DNA from: Scyliorhinus canicula
Lineage: Eukaryota
Reading direction: 5' to 3'
Assembly: GCF_902713615.1 (NCBI RefSeq)
Contig: NC_052146.1
Span: 183,571,469 to 183,635,468 of the forward strand
Length of the DNA stretch: 64,000 bases
Both the position numbers and the translations under genes were made by a program. The stretch's first letter is position 1. Every line of letters begins with the position of its first letter. The notes under the pieces were generated by a model that was not told the DNA's origin, did not search any database, and was given only the letters and a program-made list of their open reading frames with translations. This document shows positions 19,551 to 25,400 of the stretch, in pieces.

Positions 19551-22439
19551 ATGGCTGATCCAGATGAAAGTATAGATTCAGACCCTTTAGAAGGCAGAAA
19601 TTTACTCCCTACGACGGTAAAAGGAGGAACTGGGATACCAGATGTTTCCATTGAAGATATGTTGGGGGATTTTGGGTCTTTCTTTCGTAAACAATTTGAC
19701 CTATGTGAAACCTCAAGAAAAATTGAATCAAAGTATAATATCCGCAGAGGACAGTGGTCCTTTGATAATATCAAGAGAGCATGGGGAAAAAGCACACGAT
19801 TGCACAGTGCAGAACGTGTTAAATGGTCCCTGGCAATTATGGGACAATTACGCAGACAGCAAGAGATAATTACTAAAAATAAAACTGATCATGAGTATAG
19901 GACCACTAAAGACCAACTAATTGCAGATGTTGAAGAATTGCAAGATGCAAAAGCAAAAATTGAATCTGACGATGAAATTAGAACTGATTTGGAAAACAAA
20001 ATCTCTGCTGGAGCAGTTGCCTGTTCAAATAGCAGAAGTACAAAATCAAATTGCTGAAGTGGAATCACAAAACCAACAGCTGCAATCAAAAACTGAGCAA
20101 ATTGAACTTGAAAAGTACAAGTTAATTGAAGAAAAATGTGTTTTAGAAAAAGAATTGCGAGATGCAGAATTCAGTTTTGAACAGGATGATGCCAAATTCC
20201 AACAGTTATCTGTTCTATTAGCAGAATTCCAAAATCAAATTTTTGAAGTGGAATCAAAAAACCAAAAGCTGCAAGCAAAAACTGAGCAAATTGAACTTGA
20301 AAAGTACAAGTTAATTGAAGAAAACTGTTTTAGAAAGAGAATTGCGAGATGTAAAATCCAAATTTGAACAGGACGATGAACTTAGAACAGAATTGCAAAA
20401 CAAAACTTCTAAACTCCAGCAGTTATCTGTTCAAATAGAGTTCCAAGATCAAATTTTTGAAGTAGAGTCAAAATACAAACAGTTGCAATCAAAAATTGAT
20501 CAAACTGAACTTGAAAATTCCAAGTTAATTGAAGAAAAATGTGTTTTAGAAAAAGAATTGCAAGATACAAAAGCAAAACTTGAACATTATGATGAAATTG
20601 GAACAGAATTGCAAAACAAAACTTCTAAACTCCAGCAGTTATCTTCTCAAATAGCAGAATTACAAAATCAAATTTTTGAAGTGGAGTCAAAATACCAAAA
20701 GTTGCAATCAAAAACTGAGAGAATTGAACTTGAAAAGTACAAGGTAATGGAACAAAAATGTGTTTTAGAAAGAGAATTGCAAGATGCAGAATCTAAACTT
20801 GAACATTATGATGAAATTGGAACAGAATTGCAAAACAAAACTTCTAAACTCCAGCAGTTATCTATTCAAACAGCAGAATTACAAGATCAAATTTTTGAAG
20901 TAGAGTCAAGATACCAAAGGTTGCAATCAAAAACTGAGCGAATTGAATATGATAATTGCAAGTTAATCGAAGAAAGATATGTTTTTAAAAAAAGATTTAA
21001 ACACTGCGACTGAAAGGGGCAAGGTCCTAAAAGACTGGATTCAAACAGCAGCTGAAGTAACACAAACTCAACAAGCAGCCCACCTAGTGGCACAATTGGC
21101 AAATGCACAGCCGAGATCAATTGTCAAGAATAAATTAATTCCTCTGCCAAATGAATCAGACGAAGATAGTGTTCCTACAAAGCGTAATACTAAATTAATT
21201 CAACTAGCCCCTTTAAAACGCAAACGGGTTAGAGTTGGAAGCAAAAAAATAGAGGAAGAAGGTGAAACTATCTCTAGAAACATATTTGATCATCAATGGA
21301 CTCAGGAACCAGCAGAGCCTGCACAAATTGACGAATGGTCCAAAAATCTCCCACATCCTAAAAAGGGTGGTATGTCCACATGGAATGGAATTAACAGATT
21401 AAAATCCATTTACAGTCTCCACCCATTTGATGGAGTACAAGTTCTGACTATCATGCTCGGTACTCGCGTAATTTCAACCCTTAGAACTGAGGTGGAATTT
21501 GCCCTTGGAGACGATTTGCAAAATTTAGACGCTGGTTGGCTAGCAATCAGGGATTGGCTATTAACATATCGCCCCCCGAGGACCGATTGGTCTAAGATCA
21601 CATCTTGCATTCAAAAAAGTAATGAAGATATTCAGGATTTTGAGGACAGATTTTTACAGACTTGGATGGAATATTCGGGAATGACACTTACAGACGAAAC
21701 TGACGCATGGGATGCAAGCAATTTAAATCCATTAAAAACGGCTTTTGTAGCCGGTGTTAAACCTGAGGTTTCTGATGCCTTGAATTTGGTTTTACCATCT
21801 TGGGCCAAAACTGGCACATACCGAGACATAGTTGACCGGTGCATTCAGATAGATCGCGGTTTACGCAATCGGACAAGCTCATCAGCAGTGACTAAAGCAC
21901 CACCACAAAATTCAGGGCAAACATGTACCCTGGCTCCATTAAAATCACGTAAGGAAAATATACCACAATGTCTTTACTGCGGTAAAGTAGGACACTGGAT
22001 GGCAAAATGCTATCTTAAACCACGGATGGATTCGAGAGATGATAATGAGGTAGACAATTTTCACTACAATACATTTCCACCTCGTGGTCAACCACGTAAT
22101 GCGCACAAACAAGATGCACCTAGGGTAACGTTCCAACAAGACAGACCCAGACTTACGTACAGGGATTCTAAAACCTCCCAACCTTATCCATGTGGGGAGG
22201 AACCTTATCCACGTAGGGAGGAACCTTACCCACGTAGGGAGGAACCTTACCCACGTAGGGAGGAACCTTACCCACGTAGGGAGGAACCTTACCCATGTAG
22301 GGAGAAATCTTACCCACATGGGGACGAACCGTACCCACGTAGGATTCTACACGATGATAACAATGCTATGAATGAAATGTTAAACAGCTGTCCTCCAGCT
22401 CAAAGACGTTCTCTGTGTGATAATTCAAAAAACTACTAG
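19551..22439 (+). pseudogene. gag: ERV gag, copy 1 (coiled-coil repeats, CA, one CCHC knuckle; frameshifted)
   Basis: ORF pieces 19551-20057, 19921-20367, 20315-21013 and 20979-22439; MHR-like QKSNEDIQDFEDRF; CLYCGKVGHWMAKC. Confidence 0.88.
22181..22343 (+). repeat. 21-bp coding minisatellite, about 8 x PYPRREE (copy at ~31754-31916)
   Basis: ACCTTAYCCAYGTAGGGAGGA units in frame at the Gag C-terminus. Confidence 0.9.
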
Positions 22440-25400
22440 ACCCCACTCTTGATGATTCTCTCCATTTCTCTCTACATGCACTTTTGCAGCAGAAAAATGA
22501 TGGATTATATATTTCATTAAGAGTGGAAGGTATTGATATCGATTTTCTATTTGATACTGGAGCTGAACTTACCTGTGTTACTGAACAGAATGCTGCTTTC
22601 TTTCCCCTGACTTCAGAGAAAATTGAAGCTTTGGCTGCAGGAGGAGACTCTGTCCCTCTTCGGAAGACTATACCACTGCTCTTAGAATTTGGACCACATC
22701 AACTGATAGCGTCAATATGGGTAGGTCCGGTAACACAAGCACTTCTAGGTATGGACATCTTATCACAACTAAATTCTTCACTCAATTTCAATAATGGGAA
22801 AATTACCTGGCCCATTAGACACATAAAAAAAGATGAAATACAACATCATCCAATTTGGGCGATTGACAAAAATGATTGTGGTCTTTTGAAAATGGAACCA
22901 GTTACTTTCATGGGATCAGCTCCACCTTGTACCAAACAATACCCCATTAGCAAAACGTCAATTCAAGGTATTCTACCTATAATAAAACAACTTGAAGAAA
23001 GGGATATTTTAGTGCGTATTCACAGTTCATCAAACAGCCCTGTATGGCCTGTGAAAAAGGCTAATGGTACATGGCGCCTTACTATTGACTACAGAAAGGC
23101 AAATCAATTCATTGTCAGAAAAGCTCCTTTGGTGGCAGATCCGTCTACAATTTTTAACTCTTTAACTCCTGACCTTCAGTGGTTTTCAGTCATTGATATG
23201 GCAAATGGCTTCTGGTCAGTACCATTAGCTAAACAAGTACAACCATGGTTTGCTTTTACAGTTAATCAGCAACAGTACACATGGACTAGACTACCGCAAG
23301 GTTTTCACAATAGCCCAACTGTTTACCACATGGCTCTGCAGAATCACATCAGGGAACTGCCTGATCTGCCTTCAACCATTATTCAGTATGTAGATGATGT
23401 TCTGTTAGCCCCCATCAATAAAGATGACCATGAAAAGGACTTACGGGTGGTCTTGAACCACCTCAGTGCAAATGGTCACAAAGCTAGCTTTGCAAAAGCA
23501 CAAATTACCCAGGAAGAAGTTGTTTACTTGGGACAGAAAATTTCCAAAGGCAAAAGGGAACTTACTCAGAACAGAACAGCTGCCATCAAAGCAGCTAAAG
23601 AACCCTCAACTGTACAGGAAGTCAGATCTTTCTTGGGACTCTGTAATTTTAACAGAAATTGGATTGATTCTTATACTCAGTTATGCCATCCATTGAATGA
23701 TCTTCTAAAAGGAAACAGAAAATCAAAAGATCGAGTTAAACTCAATTCTGAACAAAAACAATCATTTCTGAATTTGAAAAGGTCCTGTGTTCAGCGCCAG
23801 CCTTAGGTATTCCAAACAACGGAAAACCTTTTACCATGTTTGTTCATGAAAGAGATGGTTACATGACTGCAGTACTAGCTCAAGAACATGGTGATCAGTT
23901 AAGACCAGTTGGGTACTATTCCCTTAAACTTGACAATGTGGCACTAGCATTTGGCAGTTGCTTACGAGCCATGGAAGCTACATGTCGAGCTATAATGATT
24001 ACATCTGGACTTGTTCTAGACCAAAAGTTAATCATTAAATGTCCACATTCAGTCCATTCTCTACTATCCATGAACAGAGTGTCACAAGTTACATCAGCTA
24101 GATGGACTAGATGGACAGCAGTTTTGGAAGCTCCCAACCTATATTTTCACAAAGCCAATCCTGTAAACCCATCGTCCTTGCTCCCGCTTCCCGAGGAACA
24201 AGGGAAGGGAGAGAGAGAAGTGCATGACTGTGTGAAAATAATAGAGGAAATGGAAGAAGTACGCTTAGTAGAAGAAGAGCCACTACAGAACCCAGATTTA
24301 ATCCTATTCACAGATGGTTCCTCTTTTATTGACAAGGGTATCAGGAAAGCTGGGTGGGCAGTCACAAGCCCATACGAAGTATTAGCTGAAGGAAGTTTGC
24401 CCCCAGCTACATCAGCTCAGCAGGCCGAATTAAAGGCACTTACAGAAGCATGTCATGTGGCAAGAGATAAAACTGCTAACATCTATACTGACTCCAGATA
24501 TGATCTTGGAGTAGCACATGATTTTGGCCAACTGTGGAGAAAAAGAGGATTTCTCACAACAGCAGGTACACCTATCCGAAATGGAAAGGAAGTATGAGAT
24601 CTTCTAGAAGCTATGACCTTGCCCAAAGAAGTATCAGTTCTAAAATGTAAAGCCCATACTCATGAGGACACTATGGAAGCAAGAGGAAATGCTCTTGCGG
24701 ACCAAGCAGCAAGGGAAGCTGCCTCCCTTTGTGCCTCTCATTGGCATCAGGAATCCAGTCACATTTACAAATTGGGAGTAACCACCTTATTACATGATTT
24801 ACGTGAAATGCAGAATGATTGTACAAAGGAAGAAAAATGGAAATGGTTAGAATCAGGTATTCAACCGTATGATGATGAAATTTGGAGAGAAGTTCAAACT
24901 TGTAAACCAGTCGCACCACAATCACTAATGCCCTTCTTAGCTCAACAAATTCATTCATGGGGACACATATCACCTCAACAAATGATGGATCGATTCCATA
25001 GAAGTTGGTGTGGTAAAGGATTCAAAAAACATGCACAATTGGTAACAAACAGATGTGTAACCTGTCAAAAGAATAACTTGGGTCCTATAACATCAATGCC
25101 TCAATTAAGAGCTCCTGCTCCTGCAGGTCCATTCCAGGACTTACAAGTAGATTACATCACTCTTCCTAAATGTCAACAGTACAATGACATCCTTGTAATA
25201 GTGGATAAATTCTCCAGATGGGTGGAAGCTGCTCCAGCTAGAAGAGGGACAGCTGCCCATACAGCCAAAGTGCTATGCAAAGACTTTATTCCCAGATGGG
25301 GAGTACCAGCTAGCATTGACTCAGACAATGGAACCCACTTTACAGGAGCTGTTTGTAGGGAAGTCTGTAAACTACTAAACATTAACTGGAATTTACACTG

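Follow-up and report, generated by a model that had tools for sequence, protein, structure and literature searches.

Is the frame offset between gag and pol in a catshark endogenous retrovirus with a gamma-type envelope a programmed frameshift site, of the kind that textbooks place only in the HIV/MMTV branch and not in fish or gamma-type retroviruses? The window, by which we mean the whole stretch of DNA analysed, comprises 64,000 nt of Scyliorhinus canicula (NC_052146.1, 183,571,469-183,635,468, forward strand; GCF_902713615.1) and holds a tandem duplicate of a multicopy endogenous retrovirus family in the catshark genome. We propose that in this family Gag-Pol very probably arose through a single programmed -1 ribosomal frameshift. 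The features referred to below, in window positions, are as follows.

18012..19232, + strand: 5' LTR of unit 1, first 26 nt absent, no differences from the middle LTR in 1221 nt
19235..19250, + strand: primer binding site (PBS), tRNA-Ser(AGA), with one extra base in the window copy
19386..19394, + strand: splice donor, joined to acceptor 25700 to give env mRNA
19551..22439, + strand: gag, with N-terminal coiled-coil repeats, a capsid-like region, one CCHC knuckle and a 21-nt tandem repeat
22424..25907, + strand: pro-pol in the -1 frame, one gene for protease, RT, tether, RNase H and integrase
22427..22433, + strand: slippery heptamer A AAA AAC, phased on gag
22437..22439, + strand: gag stop codon, one codon past the heptamer
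22440..22531, + strand: predicted stimulatory hairpin, core stem 22443-22455 / 22514-22526
25909..27268, + strand: gamma-type env, CWVC at 26032-26043, ISD to CX6CC at 26876-26955
27566..28812, + strand: middle LTR, common to both tandem units, with a polypurine tract just before it
32000..32006, + strand: heptamer of unit 2, the tandem duplicate, which is 99.8% identical and not an independent copy
37140..38438, + strand: 3' LTR, with 10 substitutions and several indels relative to the middle LTR

The window copy has frame changes in gag near 20.0, 20.3 and 21.0 kb, breaks in pro-pol near 23.8, 24.6 and 25.66 kb, and one in env near 26.45 kb. These defects elsewhere in gag, pol and env were not mentioned in the first-pass annotation of this DNA, nor was the junction of unit 2. 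The gamma-type Env that it described is real, as CWVC, ISD and CX6CC are present and the protein matches TLV_coat (E 1.5e-14) and syncytin-1 (E 5e-15). The proposed serine primer is likewise borne out by the PBS, which matches the 3' end of the catshark genome's own tRNA-Ser(AGA) genes and of which an exact 15-mer is present at 109 sites genome-wide. No tRNA genes were found within the window, and no Rfam families in its 18-28 kb region at E<=1.

At the junction itself the sequence is as had been claimed: positions 22427-22433 read AAAAAAC, the gag codons TCA AAA AAC TAC TAG give the phase X XXY YYZ, and pol lies in the -1 frame relative to gag, open from just after TGA TAA at 22418-22423. This is the arrangement expected of a frameshift site, with the heptamer phased on the upstream ORF and the downstream ORF in -1, and not that of class I, where gag and pol lie in one frame with a readthrough stop between them. 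The two open frames overlap by 13 nt only. There are 31 strict heptamers in the 8,331-nt internal region, and about 0.011 would be expected by chance at the three in-phase starts within the overlap. Pol has no start of its own, as no AUG precedes the protease motif in its frame (the first methionine is residue 110, the motif is at 44), and a separate AUG for pol was rejected on that ground. In the window pol frame KKL sits 42 residues ahead of the protease motif.

The junction is conserved across the family. Anchoring succeeded at 28 of 30 loci of young copies, two of the young-copy loci being the window's own; all 28 have the window's spacing and 27 the exact heptamer. Selection by protease gave 90 loci, of which 85 were scored after five without a gag end were left out. 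The exact heptamer is present in 72 of these, with one mismatch in 12 and a deletion in one, its phase to protease is kept in 75, and the gag stop falls within one codon in 76; the exact heptamer persists even where protease identity falls to about 50%. Among 24 ungapped copies with protease identity below 80%, conservation stands at 97% over the heptamer, at 56% over the 24 nt upstream of it and at 63% over the spacer; the heptamer is conserved more than its flanks, as expected of a frameshift site. Independent selection on Gag gave 24 loci, 17 of them with a protease match; in these 17 the exact heptamer was flagged nine times and recognised once more by eye, five have near matches, two lack the junction, and none has an in-frame stop junction. 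Copies that keep an open pol frame of 1154-1164 codons share the gag/pol offset, and the Gag end is the same in a second catshark species. A check of frame conservation did not bear out gag and pol in a single frame in other copies, which would have made the offset a 1-bp indel of this copy. Contigs of eight public runs show no indels at the junction, and those of the probable RNA runs have indels relative to the window at six other frame breaks. An assembly error at the junction was rejected, since the 28 anchored copies and the eight runs agree.

Downstream of the heptamer, where a stimulatory structure had been suspected, folding predicts a long hairpin that begins 6-9 nt 3' of it (-30.4 kcal/mol, z -3.9; none of 200 shuffles as stable), a stable structure at the 5-9 nt expected of a frameshift site. 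The segment ranks best of 46 folded over gag-pol (z -4.7 versus -2.6 for the next). Across 32 copies and 14 pairs, stem pairing is 87% versus 41-52% when slid, and there are 21 double-change cells, a count reached in none of 500 shuffles; these covariation counts refer to the window's own fold, and are too high because the copies are related. In both arms the two main covarying pairs fall at third codon positions, and the predicted hairpin has compensatory, synonymous changes between subfamilies. Both-side changes occur at just 4 of 14 pairs, with no excess over shuffles (345/500), and RNAalifold retains just 8 pairs. Because the stem arms are also coding, protein constraint adds to the conservation of the stem.

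In the proposed mechanism the gag stop, zero to one codon past the heptamer, would end translation for most ribosomes, and the long hairpin 6-9 nt downstream would make a minority pause. Paused ribosomes would shift back by one base on tRNA-Lys/tRNA-Asn and continue through protease, RT, RNase H and integrase in a single frame. Programmed -1 frameshifting is likely because the heptamer and its phase are conserved, a hairpin is predicted, and neither a pol AUG nor a spliced pol joint is found; the slip itself and its efficiency we infer from sequence.

One alternative is that the family, like foamy viruses, expressed pol from a separate spliced mRNA, with a pyrimidine-rich, acceptor-like stretch ending near 22487 as the acceptor and the heptamer incidental. 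A pyrimidine tract and then CAG do stand shortly before protease in the window, and the strong donor at 19389 is in use, its joint to env (acceptor 25700) being present in contigs of two of four probable RNA runs. Because the RNA labels of the runs are guesses, expression is read from this GT..AG env joint alone. However, despite the env joint, no joint enters 22440-22520 in the contigs of the eight runs, such contigs dropping rare forms; the acceptor-like tract is lost in older subfamilies that retain the heptamer, and RT groups apart from foamy viruses. We consider a spliced pol very improbable. Slippage of a polymerase on the A6 run, giving a minority of edited RNAs, is hard to distinguish from ribosomal frameshifting, according to the available part of PMC5009743, and the site is indeed a homopolymer. 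However, the run is just 6 A, the G GGA AAC and U UUA AAC that we propose for relatives (below) are tandem-slippage sites and not homopolymers, a hairpin at the canonical distance is a signal to ribosomes, and A-insertions are absent from the contigs. We give polymerase slippage very little credence.

The element had also been called a mosaic or deep-branching lineage, from RT motifs that are present as quoted. The RT phylogeny supports the deep branching and places the element outside gamma and epsilon, in a fish clade with carp, cod, anchovy, cavefish and zebrafish relatives (support 99/99) that is sister to gamma, epsilon and class II together. Union of the RT with beta/delta/class II is rejected (AU p 0.0071), as is union with SnRV (p 0.0048); union with class I alone (p 0.011) and, weakly, with epsilon (p 0.046) are rejected too, with a certainty lowered by the long class II branch. 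A 99/98 branch parts the element from SnRV and foamy viruses in a tree without named ERV-L or ERV-S rows; the RT tree has no lokiretrovirus RT, and SSSV and ZFERV are not among its named rows. An earlier quick tree, without class II and foamy rows, placed the clade next to class I as its sister group (SH-aLRT 98). The element has the gamma-type Env of class I with an RT outside the class I clade, and the -1 frameshift signal of class II, its function putative, with an RT outside class II.

The mosaic part of the claim is not supported, as the RT does not group with class II and Gag and Pol share one set of teleost relatives. Nor is a mosaic needed, because a gamma-type Env and a serine primer are already known on a non-gamma pol; the Env and primer are real, and the unusual trait is the frameshift. 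Recombination with a beta-, delta- or lentivirus-like donor could have brought in the junction, as recombination is common among retroviruses and class II references use the same heptamers. This is nevertheless highly improbable given the rejected union with class II, the match of Gag and protease, which flank the junction, to one fish clade, and the separate pro frame of beta- and deltaretroviruses, where the catshark pro is in frame with pol. Identity with BHIKHARI/lokiretroviruses was rejected by Env type alone: those are defined by an Env like the fusion proteins of negative-strand RNA viruses (PMC8922424, in the part available), and the gamma-type Env differs. A viral-contig scan gave no locus with the window RT alone and one SnRV-type record only with the clade alignment, a prokaryote genome scan gave no match, and a protein search with the protease region gave a single match, without the N-terminal extension.

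Gag ends in KN, GN or LN, with zero to one residue after it, in 11 of 16 rows of the clade versus 3 of 55 outside it; the 16 rows amount to about 11 lineages, seven of them with the signature. Such ends would fit the three shiftiest heptamers. FKL or KKL occurs in the Pol frame of the cavefish, zebrafish and horn shark models, 38-40 residues ahead of the protease motif. The teleost relatives are known from protein ends, with a DNA junction for L122 alone; this locus of the cod-like branch, the sole teleost-type DNA junction obtained, is in-frame with UGA. Judged from these ends, frameshifting seems to prevail in the fish lineage, with readthrough a local exception.

L122 and the defects of the window copies might be cited for a single-frame ancestor that used readthrough, the offset then being an indel of a founder that non-autonomous copying multiplied, without any frameshift function. 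We find this scarcely credible and already refuted by the subfamilies, with protease identities as low as about 50%, that share the offset; the offset is also carried by copies with open pol and, to judge from the Gag end, by a second catshark species, and it does not vary among copies as the other breaks do.

Returning to programmed frameshifting, a broader reading, which we offer tentatively and consider rather doubtful, is that the fish lineage from sharks to carps frameshifts on all three classic N-ending heptamers, that one branch switched to UGA readthrough, and that frameshifting may predate the class I/class II split. Two histories are equal in cost on the RT tree, at three changes each, and frameshifting may therefore be ancestral to class I and class II, with gamma and epsilon readthrough a later reversal. 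If so, recoding strategy would be a switchable trait and not a deep taxonomic marker.

Retroviral taxonomy treats the contrast between readthrough (gamma, epsilon, SnRV) and frameshifting (class II) as a global marker (PMC1224870, PMC3835772, in the parts available), and the fish and frog junctions that we found described, in the accessible portions of PMC13517186 and PMC8278194, are all readthrough. We found no report of frameshifting in this fish lineage in the literature searched, and the words frameshift, slippery and readthrough are absent from the paper describing the closest known fish clade. The catshark family departs from this rule with strong comparative support, and adds a new predicted stimulator fold with natural compensatory variants. 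As its relatives seem to use either strategy, they form a natural pair for asking how recoding mode switches and which came first. Gene models in fish genomes that fuse or split such ORFs are probably mis-annotated.

Among known systems, the fish-clade relatives resemble the catshark element in Pol (43-59% identical), in a homologous Gag with one zinc knuckle and in having pro in frame with pol, although the catshark Gag is longer and coiled-coil. At the junction the catshark has A AAA AAC, several relatives have a putative G GGA AAC or U UUA AAC, and L122 has UGA. Epsilonretroviruses and epsilon-like viruses (WDSV, WEHV, SSSV, ZFERV) share fish hosts, the order gag-pro-pol-env and pro in frame with pol, and some also the gamma-type Env; epsilon and epsilon-like viruses of fish and amphibians use in-frame stop readthrough (available part of PMC13517186), and a WDSV-type locus (L165) has an in-frame TAG junction. 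SnRV is likewise a fish retrovirus with a coiled-coil-rich Gag N-terminus and one knuckle, but differs in its in-frame UAG GGC readthrough, its RT (33% identical) and its Env. XtERV-S, a Xenopus class III ERV, also combines a non-gamma pol with a class I-like Env and a serine tRNA primer, but has an in-frame UGA junction, no zinc knuckle and an ERV-L-related RT, as described in the part of PMC8278194 available. Many retroviruses have a compact pseudoknot where the catshark family has a predicted hairpin with a large interior, folded without pseudoknots. Class II viruses use the same class of heptamer at the gag 3' end (A AAA AAC in MMTV, BLV, HTLV and EIAV, G GGA AAC in MPMV and JSRV), with a structured stimulator a few nt downstream. 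The catshark element differs from them in its non-class II RT, its 13-nt overlap, its long predicted hairpin with an interior of about 60 nt, and its one shift with no separate pro frame, an arrangement that would work like the lentiviral single shift.

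In the provirus of the window, gag and pol very probably meet at a programmed -1 frameshift site, and its sequence comparisons would place the element in a deep-branching fish lineage that is not a class II mosaic. The slippery heptamer, its phasing on gag and the opening of pol in the -1 frame are all as the first-pass annotation described them. The open frames of gag and pol overlap by only 13 nt, where about 0.011 phased heptamers are expected by chance. The features referred to below are as follows.

6589–8433, a 614-codon open stretch, presumably a CR1-like LINE reverse transcriptase
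17175–18164, minus strand, a frame adjoining the provirus that we take to be LINE ORF1-like
18012–38438, two tandem proviral units with three LTRs
19930–20960, N-terminal half of Gag, a coiled coil with repeats of ~216–219 nt
22180–22340, 21-nt tandem repeat (RREEPYP) 3' of the zinc knuckle, differing in copy number among proviruses by 21-nt steps
22427–22433, heptamer A AAA AAC at the end of gag
22434–22540, predicted hairpin
27566–28812, a long LTR (about 1.25–1.3 kb) whose own first 28 nt recur internally

The two units, each in the order PBS, gag, pro-pol, env, are 99.8% identical over 9.6 kb, and their differences cluster near 19.9–20.0 kb. Because breaks in gag, pol and env are common to both, we treat them as a single defective insertion that was duplicated rather than as two witnesses; the tandem (LTR-internal-LTR-internal-LTR) reflects a duplication that is either recent or introduced by the assembly. 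LTRs 1 and 2 are identical and LTR 3 is 10 substitutions and several indels apart, the substitutions between first and last LTR amounting to about 0.8%. As the first LTR lacks 26 nt and the provirus adjoins the LINE ORF1-like frame, a target-site duplication is unreadable. A catshark host is very likely, since Gag shares 94% identity with a gene model of Scyliorhinus canicula and 65–75% with models of S. torazame; gag frames of family members reach an unusually long 950–990 codons or thereabouts. The proposed tRNA-Ser primer holds, as the PBS matches tRNA-Ser(AGA) genes of this genome apart from one additional base, and Env is gamma-type on domain and protein comparison, as had been claimed. 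Elsewhere, about 33 matches to the tRNA-Ser 3' end form a tandem array, ~2 kb apart, at 207686055–207815602 of contig C6 of genome G000.

A lesion in this one copy would leave gag and pol in the same frame in others. Instead, the window's spacing is seen in 28/28 anchored copies (from the best 30 DNA matches), and no indel appears at the junction in contigs from 8 public runs; run contigs from one comparison do carry indels relative to the window at six of its other frame breaks. The pol frame is open for 1154–1164 codons in several copies and is never longer, so that even well-preserved copies keep gag and pol apart. We further took the best 30 of 150 protease matches and 60 chosen lower-ranked ones, leaving out 5 without a gag end (n=85). 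The heptamer is exact in 72 of these loci, differs by one base in 12 and is deleted in 1; phase is kept in 75/85, with the gag stop at most one codon away in 76/85. Even below 65% protease identity it is exact in 12/16 loci, and among 24 copies that align without gaps at less than 80% identity it is 97% conserved, against 63% for the spacer and 56% for the 24 nt upstream. To avoid junction-based selection, 24 further loci were picked on Gag, of which 7 lacked a protease match; the remaining 17 include nine flagged exact heptamers and one found by eye, five near matches and two missing junctions, with no in-frame gag-pol junction among them. Many near-identical partial protease matches (query 32–111) on small contigs of G000 (C69, C101–C104, C273, C620–C633) suggest one old copy amplified within a larger repeat.

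Downstream of the heptamer, 22434–22540 is predicted to fold into a long hairpin (-30.4 kcal/mol, z -3.9) that none of 200 shuffles equals in stability and that ranks first among 46 windows over gag-pol; Rfam holds no match to the region. The same lower stem is predicted in most of 19 older copies. Across 37 copies 91% of cells are paired, with two doubly changed pairs. In 32 copies including the oldest subfamilies 87% are paired, versus 41–52% with slid partners, and 21 doubly changed cells are spread over 4 pairs, a cell count reached in 0/500 shuffles, although the copies are related, the pair count is no better than in shuffles and the structure is taken from the window's own fold. The two main covarying pairs lie at third codon positions in both arms, and the protein therefore does not explain them. 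A degenerate pattern of heptamer and both stem arms finds 47 sites, its reversed control none.

Other routes to Pol fare less well. The first Met of the pol frame falls 3' of the protease motif. A GT..AG joint from 19388 to 25700 (donor to env) in contigs of 2 of 4 probable RNA runs suggests that the family is transcribed and spliced; no joint into the pol start is present among run contigs, a weak result since contigs drop rare forms.

On an RT tree of 72 rows and 245 columns, the window and the closest Pol proteins (43–59% identical; sources including Coilia, Astyanax, Alosa, carp, cod, piranhas and zebrafish) form a clade (99/99), sister to a group of epsilon, gamma and class II rows (100/99; both together 99/98), with foamy, SnRV and class III-like rows outside. 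The reference rows are viral contigs, named ERV-L, ERV-S, SSSV, ZFERV and lokiretrovirus rows not being among them, and their type labels are our assumption from genome length and motifs; their junctions match these labels, class II rows having A AAA AAC or G GGA AAC and rows of the gamma, epsilon and SnRV types an in-frame TAG. Trees that unite the clade with class II (p 0.0071), with SnRV (p 0.0048) or with class I alone (p 0.011) fail the AU test, and one that unites it with epsilon-like rows fails weakly (p 0.046); the groups were defined after the tree was seen, and class II lies on a long branch. Of the earlier suggestion of a mosaic or deep-branching lineage, the deep-branching part stands and a mosaic with class II does not.

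A Gag profile search and tree gave about 20 clade rows and 57 others. Once the window, L122 (a cod-like relative) and fused models are set aside, Gag ends in KN, GN or LN, with no more than one further residue, in 11/16 clade rows versus 3/55 others (Fisher p 5e-7 on non-independent rows; about 7/11 lineages). In gene models from zebrafish, cavefish and horn shark, the Pol frame has KKL or FKL 38–40 residues upstream of the protease motif, and where a Danio-type Gag ends EKN a fused model reads EKKL. From these proteins we infer that the relatives may use phased heptamers with pol in the -1 frame. Fragments of clade gag and protease, with a KKL pol start, also lie within P0102, a zinc-finger gene model of the horn shark.

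L122 shares 79% identity with the cod-type protein P0006 in Pol and 32% with the window's element in Gag. In its DNA, a single low-depth contig, gag and pol are in frame across UGA CUA G (L122:1031–1040), a known leaky stop context; LETPSL follows, resembling the KKLETPTL start in older shark subfamilies (L111). On the Gag tree L122 falls within the GN-ending proteins (SH-aLRT 98), which suggests that this branch changed over to readthrough. On the RT tree, frameshifting that was gained independently and frameshifting that is ancestral and was later lost cost three changes each, and we consider the latter less likely than not.

In the literature covered, three mechanisms are distributed by genus (PMC3835772), translational strategy is a global marker, and the 17% of gamma-like human and chicken ERVs counted as -1 are attributed to post-integration indels (both PMC1224870). 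SSSV, ZFERV and SnRV are given as readthrough (PMC13517186); XtERV-S (PMC8278194) and the shiftiest heptamers (PMC5009743) are treated elsewhere, as are related matters (PMC8922424, PMC6001957, PMC5210030, PMC2717909, PMC12193657, PMC13709493, PMC4422223, PMC12067270). The paper on zebrafish basal class I ERVs contains no frameshift term (PMC8672886), and members of the clade could be in its supplement or that of PMC4422223. We found no literature report of frameshifting in such a fish ERV, Repbase and subscription journals lying outside this scope, so that earlier notice is possible. As far as the literature was searched, the frameshift mechanism is of a known kind, and what is new is its position in the tree.
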